Below, one piece after another: positions 39,577 through 52,002 of a DNA stretch of 64,000 bases. Source of the DNA: Nitrospirota bacterium (GTDB lineage: Bacteria; Nitrospirota; UBA9217); NCBI GenBank assembly GCA_963663225.1, contig OY760142.1, positions 1,568,001 through 1,632,000 of the forward strand, written 5' to 3'. Under the pieces are notes generated by a model. That model searched no databases. It was not told the origin of the DNA and saw nothing but the letters and a program-made list of their open reading frames with translations. A program made the position numbers and the translations under genes. Numbering within the stretch: position 1 is the first letter of the stretch; each line of letters opens with the position of its first letter.

Positions 39577-40152
39577 GTGGAAAATTTACAACGCTGGTAT
39601 GGAGAAAACAGAAGAGCGGGGGCAGATCGAAGGAAATTTGCAGACCCGAATTTTTTGGGGCCGGACACGAGAACCGGAAAGGACAGAAGATACCGGGAAA
39701 AACGACAGCTTCTTGTCCGGTGTCCCCATTGCCTCATGCTGAACAGGGTCTTGCTTGACAAGCTGTTTACCAAACCGGTGTGCGGCAATTGCAAAGCAGT
39801 TCTCGATTTTCCCCAGCAGCCGGTTTGGGTGAAATCTGACGGATTTGAGCGTTCAATTGCGCACTGGCCGGAGACCCTTCTGGTGGTATTTACGGCGCCG
39901 CTCTGCCTTTACTGTAAAATAGTCGATCCGGTTCTGCAGGAACTGTCCTGGGAAAAAGCGGGGCAGTTAAAAGTCATGAAGGTTGATGCTGAGTCCGAAC
40001 AGGATTTGTCCCGGCGCTTGAGTGTCGAAAAGACCCCTACGTTTATTCTGTATAAAAACGGAGAGAAAGTTCTGCGTATTGATGGTGCGCCGAAAGATAA
40101 AACTGATATTGCCAAATGGGTCACAAACATCATAAACTTTTCAAACTACTGA
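39577..40152 (+). CDS. TrxC-like thioredoxin with Zn ribbon and Arg-rich N-terminal extension
   Basis: CPHC...CGNC, FTAPLCLYCK, KVDAE, TPT, GA; SD GGAGG before GTG. Confidence 0.8.
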   Translation: MENLQRWYGENRRAGADRRKFADPNFLGPDTRTGKDRRYREKRQLLVRCPHCLMLNRVLLDKLFTKPVCGNCKAVLDFPQQPVWVKSDGFERSIAHWPETLLVVFTAPLCLYCKIVDPVLQELSWEKAGQLKVMKVDAESEQDLSRRLSVEKTPTFILYKNGEKVLRIDGAPKDKTDIAKWVTNIINFSNY

Positions 40153-40592
40153 TTTCTGTTCCTCCCAACAAAGCGCAAGACACTATCTGGGTTCGTATTC
40201 AGCCAATGCGCGAGGAGCGTAGAGAACGGTTTTCTTAAGATACTCCCTCTTTTTTTCTGCTTACTGGCCCTCCAGATACCGAACTGAAAACAGTAAAGAA
40301 TTCTGCCGATCTTCCGAAAAGATACGGAAGATAATCATTTATACAAACAGCTACGAAAAGAATCTTCTAACTGGATGAAAATTTTGTCAGAATTGCTTGC
40401 ATGAAATCTGCCCCAAAGCGGCGCGTATCGTGTTGTGCGCAACGGGGGAAAAACGAACTATAACAGCCATAATCGTTTTTTTTATGAATAGCAAAAGGAT
40501 ATGTTGACTTCCCTGTCAAGAAAGGCTAAACTGCGAATAAGTTACAAGAATTATAACTTTTTCCCGATTTCGCGCCCAACGGTTATTATCGA

Positions 40593-42695
40593 ATGAAAAG
40601 AAAAATCATTATCTCCATAATGACCTTTTTTATTATTTCCGCCATTGGCGCGACAATAGCCTCCCTGCACATCAAAGACTTTACAGAGACGCTGAATCGC
40701 ATTATGAATCTTCGTCAATTGGAAGACCTGCACCGGCAGTTGTTTTTCTCCATCCGGGCGGTTCAGTCCGATCTTTGCTTGCCTGCGGCCGCGGTGGGTC
40801 GCGGTCAACAACAGTCCGCTGCTGACATGGCAGCCATGGTCCAATCATCCGAAAAATGCATGACGTGCCATCATAAGCCGGAAGTCACCGCGCGGATCAG
40901 CAAAATGCAGACCCGCGTTATCGATTACCGGAACACCGTCTCTTTGTATCGTGATGCAAAAAAGAATACCGCACAGACCGAAAAAATGAAGCTTCGCGCA
41001 ACCGCCATAGGCAACGATGTTCTGGATGAGCTTGAAGCGCTGCTTGAACAGGTGAATAGTAAATTTAGTTCCATCATACAGGATGCAAGGCGCAGAATTA
41101 TTGTGGCGTGGCTGGTCCTTTTCGGAGCGATGTTCGTACTTCTTGTCCTGAGTATTATCGTGGCCGTATATCTGGTTCGAATCGTTACCCATCCCATCAA
41201 CAAGCTGGTTAATGCCACGCGAATGATCGCATCCGGTAATCTGGGATATACGATCGACCATCAGGGGAAGGATGAATTCGGCGAGCTTGCCGCTCATTTC
41301 AACAGCATGAGCCTGTCGCTGAAAGATGGTTACGCCAAACTTCAGCAGGAAATTGCCGAGCGAAGAAAATCAGAAAAACAGCATGCCTATGACGCTTTCC
41401 ACGATGCGCTGACGGGCCTCCCGAACCGGGCTCTTTTCATGGACCGGCTTGAACACGTTATCATCGCTTCACACCGCCGGCCGGGAATGCCCTATTATGC
41501 GGTGCTCTTCCTTGATATGGACCGTTTCAAAGTCATTAACGACAGCCTCGGCCACACGATCGGCGACAAAGTCCTTATTGCAGTAGGCCATAAGTTGGCA
41601 GACTGCATCCGTCCCGGTGACACGGTTGCGCGCCTCGGCGGGGATGAGTTCGCTATTTTACTGGAAAACATCACGGAACTTTCCCATGCGATTGAGGTCG
41701 CCGAACGGATCAAGAAAAAACTGTCCATTCCGATCGACATCAAGGGCCATGAAGTTTTCGCATCCGTCAGCATCGGGATCACCTTGGGTACGGACGAGTA
41801 TGAGCGGTCGGAACAGGTTCTGCGCGATGCGGACATTGCAATGTACGAGGCAAAAGGACAGGGAAAATCGTCCTATGAAATTTTTGACGCCAAAATGCAT
41901 GCCAACATTATGGACCGGATGCAGCTGGAAACGGACCTGAGGAAGGCCATCGAACTTAGTGAGTTTACGCTGTACTACCAGCCCATCATGAATTTAAAGA
42001 CGCAGCAACTGACCGGGTTTGAAGCACTGGTTCGCTGGAACCATCCCAAACGCGGCCTTATCTACCCACTGGAGTTTATTCCTTTGGCGGAGGAAAATAA
42101 TCTTATCTATCCGATCGGGGAGTGGATCCTGCGGGAAGCCTGCCGGGAACTGAAGCTGCTGCAGACGCAGCATCCTATGGTGCCTCCTCTTACCATGAGC
42201 ATCAATATCTCACGAAAGCAATTTACTAGGGAAGATCTGGCTGAAAAACTGTCCGGATATTTGGCGGAATACGGTGTCGATCCACATACACTCGCCCTGG
42301 AAATTACCGAGAGCATGATTATGCAAAATGTCGACGTTGCGGTAAAGACGATGAAACAGCTGAGGGCCATGGGCGTGCAGCTTCATATCGATGACTTTGG
42401 CACAGGGCATTCTTCCCTGAGCTACCTTCATCAGTTCCCCGTTAACGCGCTTAAAATCGACAGGAGTTTTATCAATAGGCTTTCAGCGGACGGCACGAAT
42501 AACGAAATTATCACTTCAATCATCTCCCTGGCCAAGAGTTTGAATTGCGACGTCATCGCCGAAGGAGTAGAGATGGAGCATCAATTGTCCAATATCCAGG
42601 AGTTGCGCTGCGGCTATGGCCAGGGGTTCCTATTTGCCCGCCCCATGGCACTTCCTGCCATTGAGAGTTGGATACAAAAGCAGAAACATCTTTAA
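40593..42695 (+). CDS. Membrane diguanylate cyclase/phosphodiesterase (periplasmic CxxCH sensor-HAMP-GGDEF-EAL)
   Basis: Two TM helices, CMTCH, HAMP (DEFGELA..FN), RPGD I-site, GGDEF, EALVRW, DDFGTG, AEGVE. Confidence 0.93.
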   Translation: MKRKIIISIMTFFIISAIGATIASLHIKDFTETLNRIMNLRQLEDLHRQLFFSIRAVQSDLCLPAAAVGRGQQQSAADMAAMVQSSEKCMTCHHKPEVTARISKMQTRVIDYRNTVSLYRDAKKNTAQTEKMKLRATAIGNDVLDELEALLEQVNSKFSSIIQDARRRIIVAWLVLFGAMFVLLVLSIIVAVYLVRIVTHPINKLVNATRMIASGNLGYTIDHQGKDEFGELAAHFNSMSLSLKDGYAKLQQEIAERRKSEKQHAYDAFHDALTGLPNRALFMDRLEHVIIASHRRPGMPYYAVLFLDMDRFKVINDSLGHTIGDKVLIAVGHKLADCIRPGDTVARLGGDEFAILLENITELSHAIEVAERIKKKLSIPIDIKGHEVFASVSIGITLGTDEYERSEQVLRDADIAMYEAKGQGKSSYEIFDAKMHANIMDRMQLETDLRKAIELSEFTLYYQPIMNLKTQQLTGFEALVRWNHPKRGLIYPLEFIPLAEENNLIYPIGEWILREACRELKLLQTQHPMVPPLTMSINISRKQFTREDLAEKLSGYLAEYGVDPHTLALEITESMIMQNVDVAVKTMKQLRAMGVQLHIDDFGTGHSSLSYLHQFPVNALKIDRSFINRLSADGTNNEIITSIISLAKSLNCDVIAEGVEMEHQLSNIQELRCGYGQGFLFARPMALPAIESWIQKQKHL

Positions 42696-42967
42696 AACAC
42701 CGATATTTTTGGTCCCACCTCGTTCCTTCCTCCAGAAAAATTCAGCATATTCAAATCAGAAAGCATTGCCGTCCTCTTCTGTACAGTATATTTTCAGCTG
42801 AATGCTATTTCAATTCTTTGGCACAGTCTGCCATAAATCGCATGAATCATCCACCGTATACTGTTTGCAGTGTCACGTGAAATTTAAAATGAAAATTGCA
42901 GGGTCAGAGGAAGCAGGTATTCTGAGCAACACGATCTGATAGCGAAACGATAATACAGCGGGCACCA

Positions 42968-43621
42968 TCAAGCGTAATCAGCCGTGCTTCTGTCCTCTGA
43001 AAGAGCAATTTCATTCAGTTTCGTGTAAACAAACAGGGTAAAATCGTTTTCCAGCCGGTCATGGCGGAGGACGACTGAAGGGGAGAGGTTTTCTATTGCA
43101 AACCTGACCATGTCCTCCGGGGAAGTATAGTTGAGTTCCGGAGCCTTGGTTGGCGTGTGCGATGACAGAGCGTTCAGCGCCAATCCTCTGCGGCACTGCC
43201 TGAATAGCTTGATCATGGTTTCCCGGAGGTCCTGCTGGACGCCGGGAACCCGCAGATTGAATACACCGCATAGAAAGATATAATCAAACAATCCTTCCAG
43301 GGGGTCCTCACCAATGCACATCACCCTGAAAATGCATTCCGGATATTTTTTTTGAGCAAGGGATACAAGGTTTTTATTGATGTCCACGCCTGTATACTGC
43401 ACCTTTATGCCGCGCTGCTTCAGGAATTTATACAAGTCTCCCTTCCCGCAGCCGTAATCAAGAATCGTTCTGTTATTCAAATCCGGTGCAATGTCAAGAA
43501 GCGCGTGAAAGCGTTTTAACTGTCCGCTAGGAGTCCAGCGGAGAGCTTCCGGCCGGTCCCCGAACTTATTCAGGTGGTGATTAAAAAAAGAAATAAGCTG
43601 TTTCTTTGCGGAGGGATCCAA
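42968..43621 (-). CDS. Class I SAM-dependent methyltransferase
   Basis: ILDYGCGKG, YTGVDI, FDY..CGVFN; SD AGGAGA before TTG 43621. Confidence 0.85.
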   Translation of the reverse strand: MDPSAKKQLISFFNHHLNKFGDRPEALRWTPSGQLKRFHALLDIAPDLNNRTILDYGCGKGDLYKFLKQRGIKVQYTGVDINKNLVSLAQKKYPECIFRVMCIGEDPLEGLFDYIFLCGVFNLRVPGVQQDLRETMIKLFRQCRRGLALNALSSHTPTKAPELNYTSPEDMVRFAIENLSPSVVLRHDRLENDFTLFVYTKLNEIALSEDRSTADYA

Positions 43622-43688
43622 TAAGCGTCTCCTAATCGCCGCCGGGAAGCACAAAGACCGTTTTCGCCGGCGGAGTCTCCGTCATTTG

Positions 43689-44417
43689 CTAGCGGCTTAA
43701 AAGCCGTTGAACTGCCCGGTCCACTTCTTTGCCGACTTTCTTCTCAATGCCTGACTGGGCCACGGCAATACCGACTTCCTCCACGAGAGTCGTCAGAACC
43801 TCTTCCGCAATCTGGGAAGGTGTTGCACCGTCTCGTCCGCCGATGTTTGTCATCTCAAAATGTTTCAGCGTGACTGACTGGGGTTTGTCTCCCAGTGCCG
43901 CAACCCGAGACTCTATGGTGCCGCTGTCCATTACCAGTTTTTTTATCAGGAGTTTTGTTTCTTTGCCGGCAGGCTTCTTTTCTTCGACCGTTTTCTTTTT
44001 TGAAGCTGCTCCGGCTTCCTGAATGTTTTTCTTCAGGACCAGAATATTTGAAGCAAGCGCCTGGTTCATCTCATAAACGACCTGCGGGGATGCAATGCGG
44101 ATTTCCTCGATCACCAGGGGAGATGAAGTGACAGAGCGAGCGTCAATTTCCATGCTGATTTTGCCGAGCCGGAAAACATGGGGAGAGGAAAAACCCTGAG
44201 GATTCGCCACGGTCAGGCCGTTGAGCGCTCCTTTTTCTTCTGCCAACCGTATTGATACTGATGCTACGCGGACTTGTGTTTTTGCGGCTTCAGATCCGTA
44301 TTTTTCGATCGCCTCTTTTACCAGGGAATCAAGATTAGTCAAAACATAAGTAATTCCTGCGATTACAACAATCAGCAGCACAGCGACGACAATCAGCACT
44401 TTCCAGCGGGTTTTCAT
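43689..44417 (-). CDS. AsmA/DUF748-like envelope protein
   Basis: N-terminal TM anchor, LTVANPQGF, IEEIRIASP, SNI; SD AAGGAGG. Confidence 0.7.
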   Translation of the reverse strand: MKTRWKVLIVVAVLLIVVIAGITYVLTNLDSLVKEAIEKYGSEAAKTQVRVASVSIRLAEEKGALNGLTVANPQGFSSPHVFRLGKISMEIDARSVTSSPLVIEEIRIASPQVVYEMNQALASNILVLKKNIQEAGAASKKKTVEEKKPAGKETKLLIKKLVMDSGTIESRVAALGDKPQSVTLKHFEMTNIGGRDGATPSQIAEEVLTTLVEEVGIAVAQSGIEKKVGKEVDRAVQRLLSR

Positions 44418-44737
44418 GGCAATAGCCTCCTTGCGGGACATTTTAATGATAGAAGAGTTTGCTGCAATTTGCAAGAGGTAAGAGGAGAATTTGAAAAAAT
44501 ATGATGGGCTGGATATGCTGATACTATGAAAAGCAACCTGTGAGCTCGATGGAGTGACAGAAAAATATTTCGAGGGGAAACAGCCTGCTGATGCCGACGC
44601 GCAGGCGAATGACAAAAAGTGCGGTGATGCCTCCGGGAGTTGATTGAAGAGCTTGCAGGGCTTGCCGGAGATTCTGACTGAAACAGGTGCTGTCTGACAA
44701 TGTCGTCAAGGTTGAGGCCGATCAGCCCCTGCCGCCT

Positions 44738-45703
44738 TTATTTCCGTCCCAGGTTCAGCCTCCAGAGCATGTAGTGTTCCTGGGCGGCGTTTATCTCTTT
44801 ATTGTCCGGGGCAGGCGGGGAAAACGCAGCTTCATCTTCCGGCGTATGACCGGGGAGCGCTTCCGTCAGTAAGTGCAGCGGCTCATCCTCCGATGCATCT
44901 CCGTTCGCGGCATCATCTGATTCATCGGGTGTTGTCTCCGCATCGCTTTGCAAAAAGCCGTGTATCTCCTGCCGTGCAGGCAACAGGGCTGCTTCATTTT
45001 CCAGGCCGGAAGAGTGAGATTCTGTCGCCGTAAGGTTTTGAATAGCGCTCCGTTCGTGCGCCGACTGGTCTGGCTTGGCTGAGCCGTCCGCTTTGTGCGG
45101 CAGTATATAAACAGTCAGCAGCAGATGCTCAACGATCTGGAGAACGATTTCGATGTCCTTTTTCCCCAGACCTACAATTTTTTGCGACGCGTCGTTTCCC
45201 ATGAATCGAATGCTTCCCAGCCGCATCGCATTTTTTTTGGATATATGCCCTTCCGCTGCGAGTTTGTTGATTTTTTGCTCAAGGTTTCTGCCCCTGATGT
45301 CCAGATCGCAGCACACCGCTTCTACACAAGCACGCAGACCCATGCTGGCCAATATGGATGCTTCCTCCTGCAGCGAGTGTATCACTTCATTATATACGTT
45401 CGCGACCATCGGCGGAAAATAATGGGTGTCATTGATCTTTTTATGGTTTTTGATGAACTTGGGATAACACCGTACCGTTTCGGGAACGCGGCATTTCTTG
45501 CCGGTTTCATCAACATACGTGGTTTCTAAATCGACGCAGACTTCACGAAAGGAGATATAATTGCAGCCCGCACATTGGACAATCTGATAGATCAAGTCAC
45601 GCGCATATTCGTCGCGCTCGGATTCCACATGCTGGGTAAGGATTCTGTGATTCGTCGGTCGTGAGCAGATTATGCAATAACTTTTTACGGTAGTATCAGA
45701 CAT
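44738..45703 (-). CDS. DUF4145 (HEPN-like) protein with N-terminal Zn ribbon and acidic tail
   Basis: CIIC..H...CAGC, LRACVEAVC, LEQKINKL, RFMGNDASQ. Confidence 0.75.
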   Translation of the reverse strand: MSDTTVKSYCIICSRPTNHRILTQHVESERDEYARDLIYQIVQCAGCNYISFREVCVDLETTYVDETGKKCRVPETVRCYPKFIKNHKKINDTHYFPPMVANVYNEVIHSLQEEASILASMGLRACVEAVCCDLDIRGRNLEQKINKLAAEGHISKKNAMRLGSIRFMGNDASQKIVGLGKKDIEIVLQIVEHLLLTVYILPHKADGSAKPDQSAHERSAIQNLTATESHSSGLENEAALLPARQEIHGFLQSDAETTPDESDDAANGDASEDEPLHLLTEALPGHTPEDEAAFSPPAPDNKEINAAQEHYMLWRLNLGRK

Positions 45704-45895
45704 GCAGTCTCCGCCAATTGATTGTTCTTATGTGTAAACTTATCATATCTTACAACGCAATGCAAGAACGTTGTAATCCGGCTGCAAAAGGAAGCGGAAC
45801 AAGGAATGATCGGTGAAGTGTCAGAAAAAGGGCTTCGGAAAGAGGGAACCGCAACACCAGAAACACGTCTGAACAAAAACCGGGGTCTATAAACA

Positions 45896-45940
45896 AATAA
45901 CCGGATCAGTCCAACATATTGTCGGTCTGATCCGGCTATT
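45896..45940. terminator. Hairpin with U-rich tails on both strands; likely terminates the minus-strand small-ORF transcript
   Basis: AATAACCGGATCAG...CTGATCCGGCTATT; the minus strand continues TGTTT. Confidence 0.6.
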
Positions 45941-46053
45941 TTTATTTGACGACAGGTCTTGTTCCCGGCATTTTAACCTGCATCATTGCAATCCATCTTA
46001 TATCGTATTGCTGAGGAACGGCATAATATTATGAAGGGATTGTAGTTGTTTAA

Positions 46054-46143
46054 TTAAAAAAGACGTTTGCCGCTTCTCAGTTTGCTGATACCTGCCGTGA
46101 TTACCAGCAAAGAGACAAAACCCAAAAGAATATACCCGACCAT
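46054..46143 (-). CDS. Unannotated 29-aa single-TM peptide MVGYILLGFVSLLVITAGISKLRSGKRLF
   Basis: Strong SD (AGGAGGTAGTAGG-ATG); about 19 hydrophobic residues then a basic tail; below the ORF-track length cutoff. Confidence 0.65.
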   Translation of the reverse strand: MVGYILLGFVSLLVITAGISKLRSGKRLF

Positions 46144-46456
46144 CCTACTACCTCCTAAAGTTTAAAGTCCTTCGACTATTAAATTACCTTGTATCTATGG
46201 CAACTCCGTCCGGTTCTTCTCGGAAGAACGGACAGTGAACATTCAACGTTTCTGTGCGCCATGATTCAGCTGGCAACGTCGGGATTCTGATGACTGCCAC
46301 ATCGGCAGAGAGAATTATTTTTTAATACGGTCTTCTGGGAGGCATCTCTCTTTATGCATTCACTGGACACATGAAACGCCAAGGATTGTCGGTCGGCCTT
46401 GGCCTCCAGCGAGGTATTATGCAGCCGATAAAAACAAAGCAAAACATTATTATATT

Positions 46457-46473
46457 TGCTTAAACTATGCCAA
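46457..46473 (-). promoter_or_regulatory. sigma54 (-24/-12) promoter
   Basis: TTGGCATAGTTTAAGCA has exact GG-N10-GC spacing (the -12 element is AAGC rather than TTGC); divergent from a sigma54 activator gene. Confidence 0.6.
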
Positions 46474-46489
46474 AAATATTATTGCACGA

Positions 46490-46502
46490 CATCAATGTGT
46501 TA
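46490..46502 (+). promoter_or_regulatory. IHF-like site
   Basis: CATCAATGTGTTA versus consensus WATCAANNNNTTR (one mismatch); lies between the promoter and the palindrome. Confidence 0.45.
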
Positions 46503-46522
46503 GATTGATACTGAAGTTTAAG

Positions 46523-46560
46523 CTGTTATATATGGAAGATTTTTCTTCCATATATAACAG
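46523..46560. repeat. Perfect 17-bp inverted repeat (candidate UAS)
   Basis: CTGTTATATATGGAAGA-TTTT-TCTTCCATATATAACAG. Confidence 0.85.
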
Positions 46561-46617
46561 AAAAGAGTTAAACTGTTACATTCGACAGTTTTCTGCCGAT
46601 AACGAAAAAGGTGAAAT

Positions 46618-48180
46618 ATGATCATTAATGAAATAGAATTTTCCCGTGAAGTGACGCTTCATATCTGCAGCAGTCTGGAGATAGAGAAATCGCTTTGGCA
46701 GTGTTTTCTGTATGTTAAAAAAGTTATGCCGGTCGATGAGCTGATTCTTGTTGCTTATGAGAGAAACAGCGGCATGTTTGAGGTCATTGCCACGGCCGAT
46801 GTCAACGGTGGCGTGGTCCAATCGCTCAAAGTGGGGATGTCGCTGGAAGCCAGGAAAAACATCGAGAACGCCGCAAATCTTTCCCCGGTAAGAATTGTGA
46901 ATGAGATGCTGGACGATCCTATCGTGAAGCGGTTCGCAAAAGCACTGAACTGGCCGCCATCTTCCGTTATTGTCAACCGGCTCATTCTCGGCGGGAAGAT
47001 GACGGGAGCCCTGCACGTAAGAAGAGAAGGAAAAGAGAAATACACGAAAGATCATTCTCGGCTCTGGTCGTTAATCAACAAACCACTTGCGATCGCGCTG
47101 GCGAACAGTCAAAGTCATAGGGAAGTGGTGGAGCACAGGGAACTTCTCGCGGACCACAATGCATACTTGCAGGAGGAACTTCAGCTGAGCACCTTTGGCC
47201 CCGTTATCGGAGAAGACCACGGGTTGAAGGAAGTCATGAAGCAGGTGAAGCGTGTGGCGCCGCTGGCGTCCTCAGTCGTGCTCGTCGGCGAAACGGGCGC
47301 AGGCAAGGAGGTCATTGCGAACATCATGCACCAGCTGTCTCCCCGCAGCAAGGGCCCCTTTGTCAAAGTCAACTGCGGCGCCATTCCTGATTCTCTCATC
47401 GACAGCGAACTCTTTGGACATGAAAAAGGAGCCTTTACCGGGGCATTTGTCCAGCGGCGCGGCCGCTTCGAAAAAGCAAACCGAGGGACCATTTTCTTGG
47501 ATGAAATAGGAGAACTTCCCCTACAGGCACAAGCAAGGCTGCTGCGGGTTCTGCAGGAGAAAACAATCGAGCGGGTCGGCAGTTCCGATGCCATCAAGAT
47601 CGATGTCCGGCTGATAACCGCGACCAACAGAAATCTTGAAAAAATGGTGGAAGCCGGCACATTCAGGAAGGACCTGTATTTCAGAATCAAGGTCTTTACC
47701 ATTGCGATTCCTCCTCTTCGTGAGAGACGGGTGGACATTCCTCTTTTGGTCAGGCACTTTATGAACAAAAAGCAGCAGGAAATGAAGCTGCCCTGGATAC
47801 CGGTCGTGGCACCCAACGTCATGGACAGGCTGCTTCAGTATTCATGGCCCGGAAACGTCAGAGAGCTGCAAAATACGGTTGAACGGGCGCTTATCCTTTC
47901 GGGCGGAAACCCGCTTGCCTTTGAAGATATTCCACCTTCCGGATCGAGGCTTCAGCAGCAGGCGGGAAAAGCTGAAGAAGGGGCAATATTAACGCTGAAG
48001 GATATGGAGTCGAAGCATATCAGAATGGTCCTTGAAAAAATCGGCGGCAGAATCGAGGGAAAGAACGGTGCGGCCGCTTTACTCGGTTTAAATCCATCCA
48101 CGCTGCGCCACAGAATGAAAAAGCTCGGAATACCTTACGGCAGAGTGCACAACAGCACCAGAGAGCGTCGGTCGGAATAA
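46618..48180 (+). CDS. sigma54-dependent enhancer-binding protein (GAF-like-AAA+-HTH, FhlA-like)
   Basis: GETGAGKE, SELFGHEKGAFTGA, FLDEIGE, WPGNVREL, GAAALLGLNPSTL. Confidence 0.95.
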   Translation: MIINEIEFSREVTLHICSSLEIEKSLWQCFLYVKKVMPVDELILVAYERNSGMFEVIATADVNGGVVQSLKVGMSLEARKNIENAANLSPVRIVNEMLDDPIVKRFAKALNWPPSSVIVNRLILGGKMTGALHVRREGKEKYTKDHSRLWSLINKPLAIALANSQSHREVVEHRELLADHNAYLQEELQLSTFGPVIGEDHGLKEVMKQVKRVAPLASSVVLVGETGAGKEVIANIMHQLSPRSKGPFVKVNCGAIPDSLIDSELFGHEKGAFTGAFVQRRGRFEKANRGTIFLDEIGELPLQAQARLLRVLQEKTIERVGSSDAIKIDVRLITATNRNLEKMVEAGTFRKDLYFRIKVFTIAIPPLRERRVDIPLLVRHFMNKKQQEMKLPWIPVVAPNVMDRLLQYSWPGNVRELQNTVERALILSGGNPLAFEDIPPSGSRLQQQAGKAEEGAILTLKDMESKHIRMVLEKIGGRIEGKNGAAALLGLNPSTLRHRMKKLGIPYGRVHNSTRERRSE

Positions 48181-48293
48181 GAATGCCCTGTCGTGAGCAA
48201 CGCATCAGGGTGTATTGCATACCTCTTTGCCGGGCAGTTATAAATTTTCAAACACCAGGCTGCACCGATGACTCCTTGCGGACAACTAAAAGA

Positions 48294-49292
48294 ATGCAGA
48301 TAGCACCACAAAAAATCAGAATTCGTACGCTTCAAATCAATCCTCCACTTTTTCTGGCACCCATGGCGGGGCTCACCCACAGCGCGCTCAGACAGACCAT
48401 CCTCGGTTTTGGAGGAATCGGGCTCCTCTCTACGGAAATGCTGTCGTCGAAAAGGCTGCCGACGGAAAATCCCAGGCTATCACCCTATCTTGTCAGGACA
48501 AAAAAAGAAAAACCGCTTTCCTATCAGATCCTGACTTCCCGTGCCGAAGAAGTGGTTCGGGCTATTGAAGTGCTGCACAAGCTGGAGGCAGACGTGATCG
48601 ATATAAACATGGGATGCCCGGCACCCTCCGTTCGCAAGATGAGAGCAGGCATCGAGCTGATGGCACAGCCTGAGGAAGTCCGGCGCATTGTGGCGACGGC
48701 AAGGAAATGCACCGATCTTCCGCTTACGGCAAAGATCCGGCTTGGCATCGAACTCGACGAGCAGAAACTCAAAGACTTCTGCAGCATGCTTGAAGACGAA
48801 GGCATTGATCTGATCTCCATCCATGCACGCACTAAAATAGAATCATTTGCCCGAAGGCCTCGCTGGGAAAACATCAGTGCCGTAAAAAAACGGCTCAGGA
48901 TTCCTGTTGTCGTAAACGGCGGCATTTTTTCCGTCCAGGACGCAGAGCACTGTCTGCGGGTGTCCGGCGCCGACGGCCTGATGCTGGGACGCGGCGCGGC
49001 AATCAAACCCTGGCTCTTTGCCGAAATCGCGCGCAGTGTGTATGGGCGCGACATTCCGTCTCCGGTTGTGTCCTTGCCCGTGGTGTACCGCAATTTTATC
49101 GGTCTGCTGGACGAATACTTCAGGCCGGAGCACAGGCTCGGCAGGCTCAAAGAATTTACCCGTTATTTTGCCAATAATACCGTATTTGGGCACCACCTGA
49201 CGTCCGCAGTGCAGAGCAGCAACAGTGTTGATGAGGCAAAAGAACGTGCCGATACTTTTTTCGAAAATGCTCACAACCTGGTCCTTCGATAG
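48294..49292 (+). CDS. tRNA-dihydrouridine synthase family protein
   Basis: LAPMAG, IDINMGCP, TAKIRLG, IHART, NGGI, MLGRG. Confidence 0.92.
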   Translation: MQIAPQKIRIRTLQINPPLFLAPMAGLTHSALRQTILGFGGIGLLSTEMLSSKRLPTENPRLSPYLVRTKKEKPLSYQILTSRAEEVVRAIEVLHKLEADVIDINMGCPAPSVRKMRAGIELMAQPEEVRRIVATARKCTDLPLTAKIRLGIELDEQKLKDFCSMLEDEGIDLISIHARTKIESFARRPRWENISAVKKRLRIPVVVNGGIFSVQDAEHCLRVSGADGLMLGRGAAIKPWLFAEIARSVYGRDIPSPVVSLPVVYRNFIGLLDEYFRPEHRLGRLKEFTRYFANNTVFGHHLTSAVQSSNSVDEAKERADTFFENAHNLVLR

Positions 49293-49530
49293 TCCTCCCC
49301 TCTGTATCACACAATAACGTCAATAATCTGACCGCAACACTGCATTTTTGTACAAACGACGAACGCAGTTGACAAAAAAACTTGTACTAACCATCGGATT
49401 TTTAAGAAAAAAATACAAATGTTCTTTGGCTGGTTACAGTAATGTTATGGTATCCATATTGCAATACTATTACTGCAACAAGCATACGTACAACTTTTTG
49501 ACGCCCGCAGATTGTTTTTGTGGAGATGAC

Positions 49531-50436
49531 GTGAAACGGTCTTTTTTATTTGCAGTCTTTATAATGTGCGTTTTCCAGGTAACAGCGCCTCCGGCATTTT
49601 CACTTTCCGAGAAAAGCGTTCCCGCAAAATCATGCATCCTGATAGATGAACATGGCTCCGTCCTGTATGAAAAAAACTCATCAGCAAAACTTCCGCCGGC
49701 CAGCACGACAAAACTCATGACTGCCATGGTGGCGCTTGATAATCTTGACAAGTCGGCGATTGTACGGGTGGGCAGAAGAGCATCAACGATCAGTCGGGTC
49801 AAACCCAAACTTCTGCCGGGCGATGAGCTGTCGGTTACCGATCTTCTTCATCTGGCGCTTATCAAGTCGGTAAATTCCGCTGCAGTGGCTCTGGCGGAAG
49901 CCGCCGCTGGGTCCGAGTCGCGGTTTGCCGAGATAATGAACCGGAAAGCAAAAGAGATCGGGGCGCGAAACACGCATTTCGTAAATGCCTCCGGCCTGCC
50001 GGAAGGACGGCAATACACGACGGTACGCGATCTGACTATTATCATGAAAAAAGCACTTACCTATCCGCTGATCAAAGAGATTATCGGCAAAAAAAAATAT
50101 TCCGCCAGAACGGCATCTGGCAGACAATTATATGTTGAAAATACGGACAATATGCTGTGGCTCCGGAGTGATGTCATCGGAGGAAAAACAGGGTTCACCA
50201 GAAGCGCCCAGCATTGCTTCGTGGGAGCGATAGACACCGACCAGGGCTTGATTTTTACGGCAGTTCTCGGCGCTCCATCGAGAAGCCGCTTATGGAAAAG
50301 CACCGCCATGCTCGCAGATTTCGGGACGAATCCGCCGCCGGTGAAAACAATGAAAAATTCACCAAAGGAATCAACGGGCAAGAAACCGCGGCTTACATAT
50401 ATGAGAGCCGCGCTTGTGGAACTTACCCGCGAATAG
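49531..50436 (+). CDS. D-alanyl-D-alanine carboxypeptidase (peptidase S11)
   Basis: PASTTK (SxxK), SVN (SxN), NASGL, KTG; signal peptide. Confidence 0.92.
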   Translation: MKRSFLFAVFIMCVFQVTAPPAFSLSEKSVPAKSCILIDEHGSVLYEKNSSAKLPPASTTKLMTAMVALDNLDKSAIVRVGRRASTISRVKPKLLPGDELSVTDLLHLALIKSVNSAAVALAEAAAGSESRFAEIMNRKAKEIGARNTHFVNASGLPEGRQYTTVRDLTIIMKKALTYPLIKEIIGKKKYSARTASGRQLYVENTDNMLWLRSDVIGGKTGFTRSAQHCFVGAIDTDQGLIFTAVLGAPSRSRLWKSTAMLADFGTNPPPVKTMKNSPKESTGKKPRLTYMRAALVELTRE

Positions 50437-50491
50437 TAATTATTTAACCTGCACAAGCATGGTGCCTGGAGTATAAAAAGGTAATGAACGA

Positions 50492-50800
50492 ATGAAAAAG
50501 AAGATTTCAGCTGTTCGATGGACATTGTATGTTGCGATAGGGGTTATAGCATGTCTGGGGTTGTATACACTGTACGATATGCGGCAGGCAAAGCATATGG
50601 CGGCCGCTGCATGCAGCCGCGCGGTAGCGGGACTGTCTTTAAATGATTATTTGAAAAACTTTTCCACAGGCGAATTTGCCGTAATAAGAAGTTCGGATTC
50701 CATACTGTTGGTGCCGAAGAAAGGCATGGGGCGTAATTCCTGCACGGTTACGCACGATGGACAAAAAATACTCAGTTCAAAAATAAGTTTTGCCGACTAA
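50492..50800 (+). CDS. Hypothetical membrane-anchored protein
   Basis: N-terminal TM segment, two Cys in the soluble domain; co-oriented with neighbours. Confidence 0.55.
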   Translation: MKKKISAVRWTLYVAIGVIACLGLYTLYDMRQAKHMAAAACSRAVAGLSLNDYLKNFSTGEFAVIRSSDSILLVPKKGMGRNSCTVTHDGQKILSSKISFAD

Positions 50801-50810
50801 GGAGGCAGGA

Positions 50811-51431
50811 GTGGATGTCATTCGTTTTTTTAAAAAAATTGCAGCAGGATTTTTTGCCTTTGCTGTAATGGCGGCTGTTGGTTCGGCCGCGTCGCCTGCG
50901 CAGGATGAAAACAAAAAATTTTCGGAATACACTTCACCCGGCAATTATTTTACCTGCACTATTCCTGCGGACTGGAGCGTGTACAATCCGGGTTTTGGTT
51001 TGTCAGCGGAGGAGAAAAAAGTATATGGGTTGACCCTGTTGGGCCCCCGGAACGGAAGCAAGGTCTCTCCAGAGATTTCTTTACATTATTACGCCCCGGG
51101 GAATCTTCTGCATAAGACAATGGAACGATTTATCCGGTTGCATGCCGGTCCTGTTCTGGGAGAAGCGAAGGAAGGGGCGTCTTACGGCACAGTCGGCAAG
51201 ATTACCATTGCGGACAGAGAAGCAAAGGCCTTTGAACGGAAAAACATTCAATTTATCGGCGGACGTTCTTTGAACCCGGAGAAGGTCGCCCTGCATGAAG
51301 AATATATTGTCGTTCCCGACAAAAAGAATGAAGGGTTCTATGTCGTTCGGTTTTCAGTCCCGGAGGAGCTTAAGGACAGAGACGCAGAAACATTTAAAAC
51401 CGTTGCAAAATCATTTCTGCCAAAGAAGTAA
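50811..51431 (+). CDS. Exported hypothetical protein (PsbP/DcrB-like fold possible)
   Basis: Signal peptide, FTCTIPADW, F..VAKSF end; SD AAGGAGG. Confidence 0.6.
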   Translation: MDVIRFFKKIAAGFFAFAVMAAVGSAASPAQDENKKFSEYTSPGNYFTCTIPADWSVYNPGFGLSAEEKKVYGLTLLGPRNGSKVSPEISLHYYAPGNLLHKTMERFIRLHAGPVLGEAKEGASYGTVGKITIADREAKAFERKNIQFIGGRSLNPEKVALHEEYIVVPDKKNEGFYVVRFSVPEELKDRDAETFKTVAKSFLPKK

Positions 51432-52002
51432 ACACCATGCATTATAATCAGCATCACTGGTCTATCCGGAGTTCTTCCGCCTTGTTATTCTCCCATTTAA
51501 GAAACCGACCTTTTACCATGCATCAAAAATTTCATGAACAAAACAGCCTGGACAGGACCGGGGCTTGACCGGATTTGAGCGTCGTAAGCAAGCCTTAAAA
51601 GCCGCTGTTCTAGAAGCCGATTTACCTGGAAATAGTTCTTGACGTTTCTGCCGTTGCGTTATATTCTATTGAACAGTCAATGGTTTCGCGATTGTGAACC
51701 TCGGAATATTTGAGAATACGACCGGAATTCCTCTTTTCGCCTGCAAATAAGCTGAACAATCAGACGAGTGCAGACAAAACGTTTTTTGCGGGACCCATGA
51801 ATAGGGCGGTAGTTTGGCCTGGGTTGCGGTCTTCGTACGGTCTTGAAGAAGCGTCCGATGAGACATCGGAAACAGAAAACGAATTTTTACCGGTGTGAAA
51901 ATCGTGGCTGTAAACAGCAGACCGGTCATTGCATTGATCGACAGCGTTTTTTACGGCATGAATACTACAATAATAAAATAAATACCGTGAGGAGGGATGT
52001 GC

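Follow-up and report, generated by a model that had tools for sequence, protein, structure and literature searches.

The locus considered here raises the question of what is switched by an activator of sigma-54 RNA polymerase when the divergent promoter beside it leads into a short transcript whose reading frame comprises only 29 codons. The locus lies in a stretch of 64,000 nucleotides (nt), referred to below as the window, from a bacterium of the phylum Nitrospirota (GTDB lineage UBA9217; assembly GCA_963663225.1, contig OY760142.1, positions 1,568,001 to 1,632,000 of the forward strand), and coordinates are those of the window unless another sequence is named. An initial annotation of positions 45896-48180 had described a complete sigma-54 regulatory module with a structured RNA and a membrane peptide of 29 amino acids (aa) as its only visible target, and had proposed a dedicated system leading from a signal to a small protein or small RNA (sRNA). 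The analysis reported here makes it likely that the locus is a canonical one-component sigma-54 switch in which the 29-aa membrane protein is the functional product, and its description as a dedicated signal-to-small-protein switch is well supported at the level of sequence comparison.

The comparisons depend on a small set of related genomes. When the DNA of the region was searched for in 41 genomes, namely that of the studied organism (G000, 3.26 Mb) and those of 40 relatives, it was recovered in three: G000 itself and two relatives which belong to other species of the same genus (G004 and G002). G004 is 88% identical to G000 across the whole region, while the match to G002 in this search has 73% identity over the covered part only, which runs from just 5' of the open reading frame (ORF) through the terminator. 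Segment identities were measured in a three-way alignment of these genomes. The segments that are kept across the two other species are the promoter, both inverted repeats upstream of it, the ribosome-binding site and ORF, and the terminator; the spacer between the repeats and the promoter has 51% identity between G000 and G002, and the segments 3' of the terminator and the flanks diverge, with 31% identity between G000 and G002 immediately after the terminator and 31-44% beyond it in the three-species alignment. This distribution of conserved segments shows, as far as the alignment can, selection on both inverted repeats and the -24/-12 element, on a stretch of approximately 46 nt that precedes the ATG, and on the 29-codon ORF together with the terminator. 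Contigs from runs X1 to X3, which are labelled RNA-Seq and are probably sludge-metagenome DNA, and from the DNA run X8 indicate that relatives approximately 90-97% identical also carry the locus; one 993-nt contig of X1 ceases to fit just past the terminator, at 45888, and no conclusion is drawn from it.

The evidence that the ORF is a gene comes from its pattern of substitution. The gene occupies 46054-46143 on the minus strand and encodes MVGYILLGFVSLLVITAGISKLRSGKRLF. Its ATG is preceded at a distance of 7 nt by the Shine-Dalgarno (SD) sequence AGGAGG (46156-46151), and this is taken to be the sole sensible start because the frame extends for only 33-35 codons from stop to stop. Two synonymous and no non-synonymous changes separate G004 from G000. 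The ORF of G002 is 76% identical to that of G000, and the 18 codons that differ comprise 12 synonymous changes and six conservative replacements (L>V, F>I, L>V, T>M, S>T and S>G), with the differences distributed over the first, second and third codon positions as 6, 2 and 14. The rates of non-synonymous (dN) and synonymous (dS) substitution in the same comparison are 0.126 and 1.54, which gives a dN/dS of approximately 0.08, an estimate that is noisy for 29 codons. Purifying selection on the ORF is shown by these comparisons, insofar as aligned codons can show it.

Residues 1-20 of the peptide are hydrophobic (mean Kyte-Doolittle value 2.15) and the last nine carry four basic residues (K21, R23, K26 and R27), an arrangement which, by the positive-inside rule, suggests a single-pass protein with its N-terminus outside and its C-terminus inside. 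A small hydrophobic membrane peptide of this kind is also what characterizes type I toxin-antitoxin systems. The expectation that standard annotation would miss the gene did not hold, as the exact 29-aa sequence has already been called as an unnamed protein in NCBI, JGI/IMG and Logan, on four contigs. No family in Pfam, NCBIfam or PADLOC includes the peptide, a phmmer search of the PDB gave no real match (best E 3.8), and tblastn found no match in plasmids and nothing better than E 0.27 in 160 loci that contain relatives of the activator. The gene is present in a single copy in the genome.

The promoter assigned to this gene is the -24/-12 element TTGGCATAGTTTAAGCA at 46457-46473 on the minus strand, in which the GG (46471-46470) and GC (46459-46458) dinucleotides have the N10 spacing and the TGGCA and GC(A/T) contexts of a sigma-54 promoter. 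All 17 of its positions are retained in G004 and 15 of 17 (88%) in G002, with the GG and GC invariant. Placing the C of the GC dinucleotide at -12 predicts a transcription start near 46446. The sigma factor itself is encoded by one rpoN copy in the genome (a 519-aa frame that matches Sigma54_DBD with 209.5 bits).

Two inverted repeats, both located with a repeat finder, lie within the interval of 80-150 bp upstream of the promoter in which the upstream activating sequences (UAS) of enhancer-binding proteins are found. UAS 1, AAACTGT-N8-ACAGTTT at 46570-46591, is centred at approximately -134 from the predicted start, and its counterpart in G002 is a perfect 16-bp palindrome, CTGTTATATATAACAG. 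UAS 2 is a perfect 17-bp inverted repeat, CTGTTATATATGGAAGA-N4-TCTTCCATATATAACAG, at 46523-46560, centred at approximately -95, with 95% identity to G000 in G004 and 82% in G002. Between the repeats and the promoter stands a plus-strand site resembling those of integration host factor (IHF), CATCAATGTGTTA at 46490-46502 (about -44 to -56), which fits what we take to be the IHF consensus except at its first base and which is kept in part in the relatives (TTCAATATGTTA in G004, ATCAGCATGTTA in G002); the genome has three genes of the HU/IHF family. Centres of UAS near -95 and -134 and an IHF site near -50 are at the usual distances for sigma-54 promoters. As an observation apart, the symmetry of UAS 2 has been kept by symmetric double substitutions, with GGAAGA/TCTTCC in G000 and GAAAGA/TCTTTC in G004 and G002. 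The observation covers this site in the window and in the loci L002 and L003. G002 has C at position 5 of both arms, while its UAS 1 retains T there. The changes look more like the maintenance of a hairpin or the result of template switching than like an altered protein specificity.

The activator gene runs in the opposite direction at 46618-48180 on the plus strand and encodes a one-component enhancer-binding protein of 520 aa, in which an N-terminal sensor of GAF fold (approximately residues 1-165) leads through a coiled linker to an AAA+ sigma-54 interaction domain that carries GAFTGA, with an HTH_8 domain at the C-terminus. Pfam matches cover Sigma54_activat (PF00158, 5.3e-71), AAA_lid_14 and HTH_8 (3.5e-7), and the GAFTGA motif and the Walker motifs GETGAGKE and FLDEIGE that mark an AAA+ enhancer-binding protein can be read in the translation. 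No Pfam domain reaches threshold in residues 1-195, where GAF_3 has an E of only 0.13. An AlphaFold2 model of the N-terminal domain, built from an alignment (A4) of ten relatives, has a predicted local distance difference test score (pLDDT) of 86 and a predicted template modelling score (pTM) of 0.78, and its best Foldseek matches in the PDB are the GAF domains 5w10, 3k2n and 4g3k (E 3e-8 and weaker, probability 1.00); of these, 3k2n is the regulatory domain of a sigma-54 regulator from Chlorobium and 4g3k belongs to NlhH of Aquifex. The activator scores below the cut-off of every NCBIfam equivalog, with 362.7 against 528.85 for NifA (TIGR01817), and from the modelled fold and these scores it is judged to be a GAF/AAA+/HTH one-component regulator of no named subfamily. 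The GAFTGA activator, the 7-bp and 17-bp inverted repeats, the IHF-like site, the GG-N10-GC promoter, the SD sequence with its ORF and the terminator-like hairpin, which the initial annotation had read on the minus strand for all but the activator, are each present where they had been placed, the departure of the IHF-like site from consensus at its first base and an end-to-end span of 45895-45941 in place of 45896-45940 for the hairpin, with its T-rich tail, being the refinements.

It has further to be determined whether the activator serves this promoter alone. Of the five copies that the 3.26-Mb genome contains of an 11-mer taken from the UAS, CTGTTATATAT, only those at this locus form a pair. 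A sigma-54-like pattern with a TGT-N8-ACA site at most 350 bp upstream is found at five places, including this one, which is approximately the number estimated for chance. The three lone copies of the 11-mer and the five pattern combinations were considered as other targets of the activator and rejected, being about as many as chance would supply and including none with the paired arrangement. As far as a guessed motif can tell, no target other than the peptide gene is visible, and the earlier claim to that effect is supported by the single occurrence of paired UAS in the genome. A separate palindrome, CTGTTATATAACAG (TGT-N6-ACA; G000:C1:2504135-2504148, outside the window), lies upstream of a NifU-like ORF; its half-sites are UAS-like but spaced differently, and no GG-N10-GC adjoins it.

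The distribution of the genes was evaluated in a family sample of 64 genomes and a phylum sample of 401. By tblastn the peptide is present at E < 1e-8 in three of the 64 family genomes, which are again G000, G004 and G002, and in the same three of the 401. Nine further hits, with E between 0.087 and 1.0, are partial and lie inside frames of 239-505 aa; they were taken as chance. In 40 of the 64 family genomes there is a match to the activator's N-terminal domain at E <= 0.001, but matches at the level of orthologues (85-99% identity) are restricted to G000, G004 and G002, and the next best, at 35%, is a paralogue. The activator, the peptide and the DUF4145 gene that lies downstream, as counted, co-occur only in the same three of 64 genomes, and the proposed check of peptide conservation and synteny with the activator comes out in favour of the small-protein part of the proposal, with ORF and SD sequence conserved wherever the activator orthologue is found. 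The genome holds approximately 18 strong Sigma54_activat matches. The paralogue just mentioned (G000:C1:482219 onward, in the region 481183-483800, outside the window) has 35% identity in the N-terminal domain and is divergent from a sigma-54-like element, TGGCACAATAATGGCT, which is followed by a leader of approximately 230 nt and an unclassified 212-aa ORF; a motif TGTTATATA stands 73 bp before the start of that activator. A foreign origin of the present locus was considered and rejected, as the coding genes, with 49-55% GC, match the genome (49.4%) and the neighbours are of housekeeping types; AT-richness is confined to the intergenic and peptide region, which has 41-42% GC.

Whether the RNA itself is a structured product was assessed separately for the two ends of the predicted transcript of approximately 550 nt. 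The predicted 5' untranslated region (UTR) of 303 nt consists of a variable part (46190-46446, minus strand), which has 31% identity to G002 with 107 gap columns, and a conserved block of 46 nt before the ATG (46144-46189, minus strand) which contains the SD sequence and is identical at 45 of 46 positions in G004 and 39 of 46 (85%) in G002, a level above that of the ORF itself. In G002 the leader is approximately 100 nt shorter and essentially unalignable. The 303-nt leader does not fold beyond its shuffles (z -1.69; 5 of the 100 reached an equally good fold), the covariation term of the three-species consensus fold computed with alifold is -0.1, and an Rfam 15 scan of 40000-52000 found no family at its gathering score. 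The best Rfam match in that scan, gltS (34.3 bits against a gathering score of 47.5), is on the plus strand at 46506-46616, where it spans both DNA repeats; being below threshold, on the opposite strand and laid over two DNA palindromes, it was dismissed as arising from the repeats themselves. The interval 44000-49000 contains neither a tRNA nor a tmRNA. The SD sequence is unpaired in the minimum free energy (MFE) fold, and no conserved pairing against it was found in the three-species comparison of leaders, so that the translational block in the 5' UTR that is typical of type I toxin mRNAs is not seen here. The exact pattern of the block before the ATG has no match in viral contigs. A leader as long as this seems normal here, given the leader of approximately 230 nt at the paralogue locus.

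At the other end, the 3' UTR of 112 nt (45942-46053, minus strand) has 59% identity to G002 and two predicted hairpins, one closed by a CAATCC...GGATTG stem and the other formed by GCAGGT...ACCTGT. The first of these begins 14 nt past the stop codon, and in the consensus fold of the three species five of its pairs still form although both partners have changed. The intrinsic terminator that follows (45895-45941, minus strand), detected by the repeat finder, has 22-nt arms that are 86% complementary, followed by TTATTTGTTTAT; it is T-rich on both strands, and its plus-strand version was scored by the terminator scan. Its stem is kept in G002 with three pairs altered on both sides, and in the consensus fold of 3' UTR and terminator together 8 of 46 pairs are retained through two-sided changes (the five of the first hairpin and the three of the terminator). 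The fold of the two together has a z of -5.58, and the 3' UTR without the terminator one of -1.03. The comparison points to RNA structure more at the 3' end than in the leader, yet weakly with three sequences. The proposal of a signal-to-small-protein or sRNA system thus divides: its small-protein part stands with the co-occurrence, the purifying selection and the single pair of UAS, while the leader fold, the Rfam scan and the alignment go against the structured leader and the sRNA.

The gene downstream of the terminator encodes a 321-aa protein (44738-45703, minus strand; Pfam DUF4145 2.7e-12, PADLOC PD-T7-4 1.5e-5) with a Cys4 zinc ribbon, and resembles RAZR. As published, the RNase RAZR (PD-T7-4) combines an N-terminal Cys4 zinc ribbon with a C-terminal, HEPN-like DUF4145 domain (PMC13017515). 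The same architecture is present in the downstream protein, with CxxC pairs at residues 10-13 and 44-47. Its segment R166-FMGNDAS-Q174 has Gln at what is, by spacing alone, the position of the catalytic His of RAZR-Ec (R146/H154, eight residues apart), and the same holds in G002. The protein has no sequence hit in the PDB, and its C-terminal 120 or so residues form an acidic, Pro-rich extension that the profile, with its 211 positions, does not have; the protein may be a relative of RAZR that has diverged or lost activity. Orthologues are present only in G000, G004 and G002, each time directly downstream of the peptide gene, and matches in three other family genomes have only 28-30% identity. 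Within the 192-nt spacer before this gene, a 45-nt block, CGTTCTTGCATTGCGTTGTAAGATATGATAAGTTTACACATAA (45725-45770, minus strand), approximately 25-70 nt before the ATG, is nearly invariant in the three species while the remainder of the spacer diverges. The block is probably the gene's own promoter or operator. Because of this block and of the strong terminator in between, the DUF4145 gene is treated as a separate unit, which it probably is.

On the other side of the locus, a DusB-like dihydrouridine synthase gene (369 aa) has its ATG 2 nt past the activator stop (48180-48183), followed by a Peptidase_S11 gene. Each of the other five genomes of the genus has a dus orthologue, and in G001 and G003 the genes around it are not the same; this marks the three-gene block as an addition, specific to the lineage, beside dus. 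In G001, G003 and G005, where dus is present, no activator orthologue was found. Linkage of dus with genes of Fis/NtrC-type HTH proteins (dusB-fis, nifR3-ntrBC) is an old observation.

Other accounts of the locus differ as to which of its parts is the product. If the transcript were the regulator, as an sRNA or a dual-function RNA in which the block before the ATG or the hairpins of the 3' UTR are active and the ORF is secondary, then it would be understandable that this block has 85% identity to G002 and the ORF 76%, and that three hairpins at the 3' end are kept with 8 of 46 pairs changed on both sides; for D. vulgaris, noncoding RNAs (ncRNAs) are listed as the sole targets of enhancer-binding proteins (PMC4641369). 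Such an RNA would not be expected to contain an ORF with this codon-position bias and dN/dS, nor to have a leader that is neither conserved nor significantly folded, a 3' UTR unremarkable without its terminator and no Rfam family, and a conserved block before the ATG is also expected of a ribosome-binding region; we regard this account as distinctly unlikely. Similarly small is the credence given to the view that the DUF4145 gene is the real regulated gene, with the 29-codon ORF and the 3' UTR hairpins acting as a leader or attenuator, or with the genes forming a read-through operon. In each of the three genomes the DUF4145 gene does follow the peptide gene immediately and on the same strand, with the same distribution in 3 of 64 as the peptide and the activator, and a hairpin begins 14 nt after the peptide stop codon, but a strong conserved terminator stands between them, the gene has a conserved upstream block of its own, no convincing alternative antiterminator pairing was found by eye, and purifying selection of the kind seen in the peptide is rarely needed by a mere leader peptide.

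A different objection accepts the peptide as the product and concerns what it does. It could be a membrane-depolarising toxin, type I-like or of a dormancy or suicide kind, silenced by low basal activity of the sigma-54 promoter and not by an antisense RNA. In its size, its single hydrophobic helix and the basic tail at its C-terminus it has features that the YohP paper ascribes to small membrane proteins and type I toxins alike (PMC12719787), and the long 5' UTR, the confinement of the orphan to one genus and the adjoining RAZR-like gene of abortive-infection type fit as well. Standing against a toxin of this class are the single copy of the gene, an SD sequence that is not sequestered in the MFE fold, and the lack of an evident conserved antisense promoter or RNA: neither the promoter scan nor the three-species comparison revealed a conserved plus-strand promoter over or beside the ORF, and the single plus-strand promoter-like site, at 45718-45746, does not overlap the ORF and has only its -10 half within a conserved block. 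Sigma-54 promoters are silent without their activator, a property that would suit the toxin. The initial annotation had offered both a modulator of a membrane complex and a type I toxin-like peptide as candidate functions; sequence alone cannot separate a toxin from a benign modulator, and the toxin is rated unlikely. Far more speculative, and held to be very improbable, is an extension in which the activator, the peptide and the RAZR-like protein, inherited together, would make up a suicide or dormancy module wired at the level of transcription, where the GAF domain would sense a small molecule derived from infection or damage, the activator-dependent promoter would take the place of an antitoxin, and the peptide would depolarise the membrane beside the RAZR-like zinc-ribbon/HEPN protein. 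The most sceptical account denies the sigma-54 promoter altogether: a sigma-70-like sequence, TTGGCA-16-AATAAT, which overlaps the sigma-54 element of G000 on the minus strand (46473-46446) and scores 10 of 12 matches in the scan, would be the true promoter, the repeats would serve as operators through which the activator gene is repressed or autoregulated, and the match to the sigma-54 pattern, which by itself occurs in the window at chance frequency, would be coincidental. The last T of the -10 hexamer is replaced by A in both relatives (AATAGA in G004, AATACA in G002), and none of the three species departs from GG and GC at the exact N10 spacing. The sigma-54 assignment is favoured because that last base is not kept; the neighbouring gene, moreover, encodes a complete sigma-54 activator with GAFTGA, and in four of eleven loci of distant relatives a small ORF is likewise closely preceded by a sigma-54-like element in divergent orientation. 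The probability left to the sigma-70 account is very small.

Several points nevertheless weigh against reading the locus as a sigma-54 switch for the 29-aa protein. The comparative support comes from three related species, and as G004 is 88% identical it is chiefly carried by one comparison, that with G002, in which the dN/dS estimate has the noise of a very short gene. The -24/-12 pattern alone is at chance, with one match in the window against a shuffle mean of 1.34, and the promoter is placed beyond chance because of its conservation and not by the frequency of the pattern. The overlapping sigma-70-like site may permit some activator-independent transcription in the G000 species. The binding of the activator to UAS 1 and UAS 2, the use of IHF at its candidate site, the start near 46446 and the membrane topology are all predictions from sequence. 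A search of sequencing runs listed no RNA sequencing run with the locus. The DUF4145 gene shares the phyletic pattern, and the peptide may not be the sole payload if the terminator leaks. The peptide, finally, is without detectable relatives in the databases searched, and any function proposed for it is a guess by analogy.

With these points in mind, the following course of events can be proposed for the sigma-54 switch. A ligand or a redox signal would act on the N-terminal GAF domain of the activator, whose HTH_8 domain would bind the two inverted repeats centred near -134 and -95. A bend at the IHF-like site would carry the activator to sigma-54 RNA polymerase at TGGCAT-N5-AAGCA, and ATP hydrolysis, as expected from the protein family, would open the promoter near 46446. 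The product would be a monocistronic RNA of approximately 550 nt, comprising a 303-nt 5' UTR of which the last 46 nt or so are conserved, the 90-nt ORF preceded by a strong and exposed SD sequence, a 112-nt 3' UTR and the strong terminator. The functional product would be the 29-aa protein and not the RNA, as a single-pass peptide of the inner membrane whose N-terminus would lie outside and whose basic tail would face the cytoplasm, and our guess is that it acts as a signal-induced membrane modulator or stress peptide of the YohP, MgtS or PmrR kind. The activator probably also regulates its own gene, because the repeats end 27 bp before its ATG.

The history of the arrangement can be approached through more distant relatives of the activator, which were sought in 185,579 species genomes and a metagenome collection. 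The best full-length relatives in these collections, from Desulfobacteraceae and metagenome contigs, have 46-51% identity. Eleven loci with near-full-length matches were examined, and in four of these (L119, L120, L008 and L009) a divergent sigma-54-like element is followed by an ORF of approximately 90 aa, in each case on the minus strand (L119:1938-2213, L120:2019-2291, L008:220-561 and L009:3516-3803). These loci share with the present one the N-terminal domain family and a divergent sigma-54-like promoter before one small gene; they differ in that the payload is a soluble-looking protein unrelated to the peptide or its leader. Homology unites the four proteins, in which 12 positions are invariant (M1, W3, E5, I7, R10, N44, V47, W57, G70, G81, H85 and W88); they belong to no Pfam family and fall among unnamed clusters of the protein atlas. 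G000 has no copy of them, and the idea that the leader is a decayed copy of such a gene was rejected, as the lowest E that tblastn with the four proteins reached at the loci of G000, G004 and G002 was 0.29. Neither this other small protein behind relatives of the activator nor the co-inherited RAZR-like gene had been noticed in the initial annotation. Since the relatives have their 90-aa payload behind the same arrangement, the cassette of activator and divergent promoter is older than its present payload in this genus. A related evolutionary reading, in which an ancestral cassette captured a newly born small ORF in this genus, is given, jointly with the suicide or dormancy module, the same very low probability.

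The individual components of the locus have counterparts in known systems. For Desulfovibrio vulgaris, several enhancer-binding proteins have been listed with a single ncRNA target, including the divergent one-component DVU2359 (PMC4641369; Kazakov et al. 2015). Going by that published description and not by orthology, DVU2359 resembles the present activator in being a GAFTGA single-component protein with a divergent sigma-54 promoter that drives a short transcript rather than an enzyme operon, and differs from it in that the transcript here carries a conserved 29-codon ORF. GlrR-GlmY, CbrB-CrcZ and LuxO-Qrr are further cases in which an enhancer-binding protein controls an sRNA. Activators of the NifA, FhlA and NlhH type share with this protein the order of GAF, AAA+ and HTH_8 and the GAF fold seen in 3k2n and 4g3k, and the UAS here, TGT-N8-ACA, resembles the NifA site, TGT-N10-ACA; the protein differs in scoring below the NCBIfam cut-offs and in the spacing of its half-sites.

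On the side of the payload, YohP, a 27-aa protein, lowers the proton motive force, and its authors note features common to small membrane proteins and type I toxins (PMC12719787). The stress-induced small membrane proteins of E. coli and the present peptide have in common fewer than 50 residues, one transmembrane helix (here predicted) with basic flanking residues, a C-terminus on the inside (here likewise predicted) and no catalytic potential, and signal-specific induction would be a further likeness; they have no sequence similarity to the peptide and are driven by sigma-70 promoters with two-component or global regulators, not by an adjacent sigma-54 activator. MgtS, PmrR and MgrB are other signal-induced small membrane proteins. 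Type I toxins of the TisB/IstR type share the hydrophobic character of this 29-aa peptide, the long 5' UTR and what would be tight transcriptional control by one regulator. They differ from it in that the search here revealed no antitoxin RNA, either antisense or divergent, that the SD sequence is exposed in the predicted fold and that the gene is single-copy. In the open-access full-text literature searched there was no paper on an enhancer-binding protein dedicated to a small membrane protein; the pairing of a canonical sigma-54 module with an orphan small membrane protein is unusual, not unprecedented.

The locus leaves the knowledge of sigma-54 regulation itself unchanged, in that the wiring is ordinary and the tiny protein is its orphan element. 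Its interest lies instead in what the wiring offers for the study of such proteins. Small membrane proteins are numerous, and most are without known function or inducing signal. A peptide provided with a private, ligand-sensing activator and an all-or-none promoter constitutes an unusually clean experimental handle, as identifying the ligand of the GAF domain or rendering the activator constitutive would turn on the peptide alone. The locus also presents a sigma-54 activator and promoter cassette which keeps its architecture while its payload is exchanged, from a protein of approximately 90 aa in the relatives to a 29-aa peptide here.

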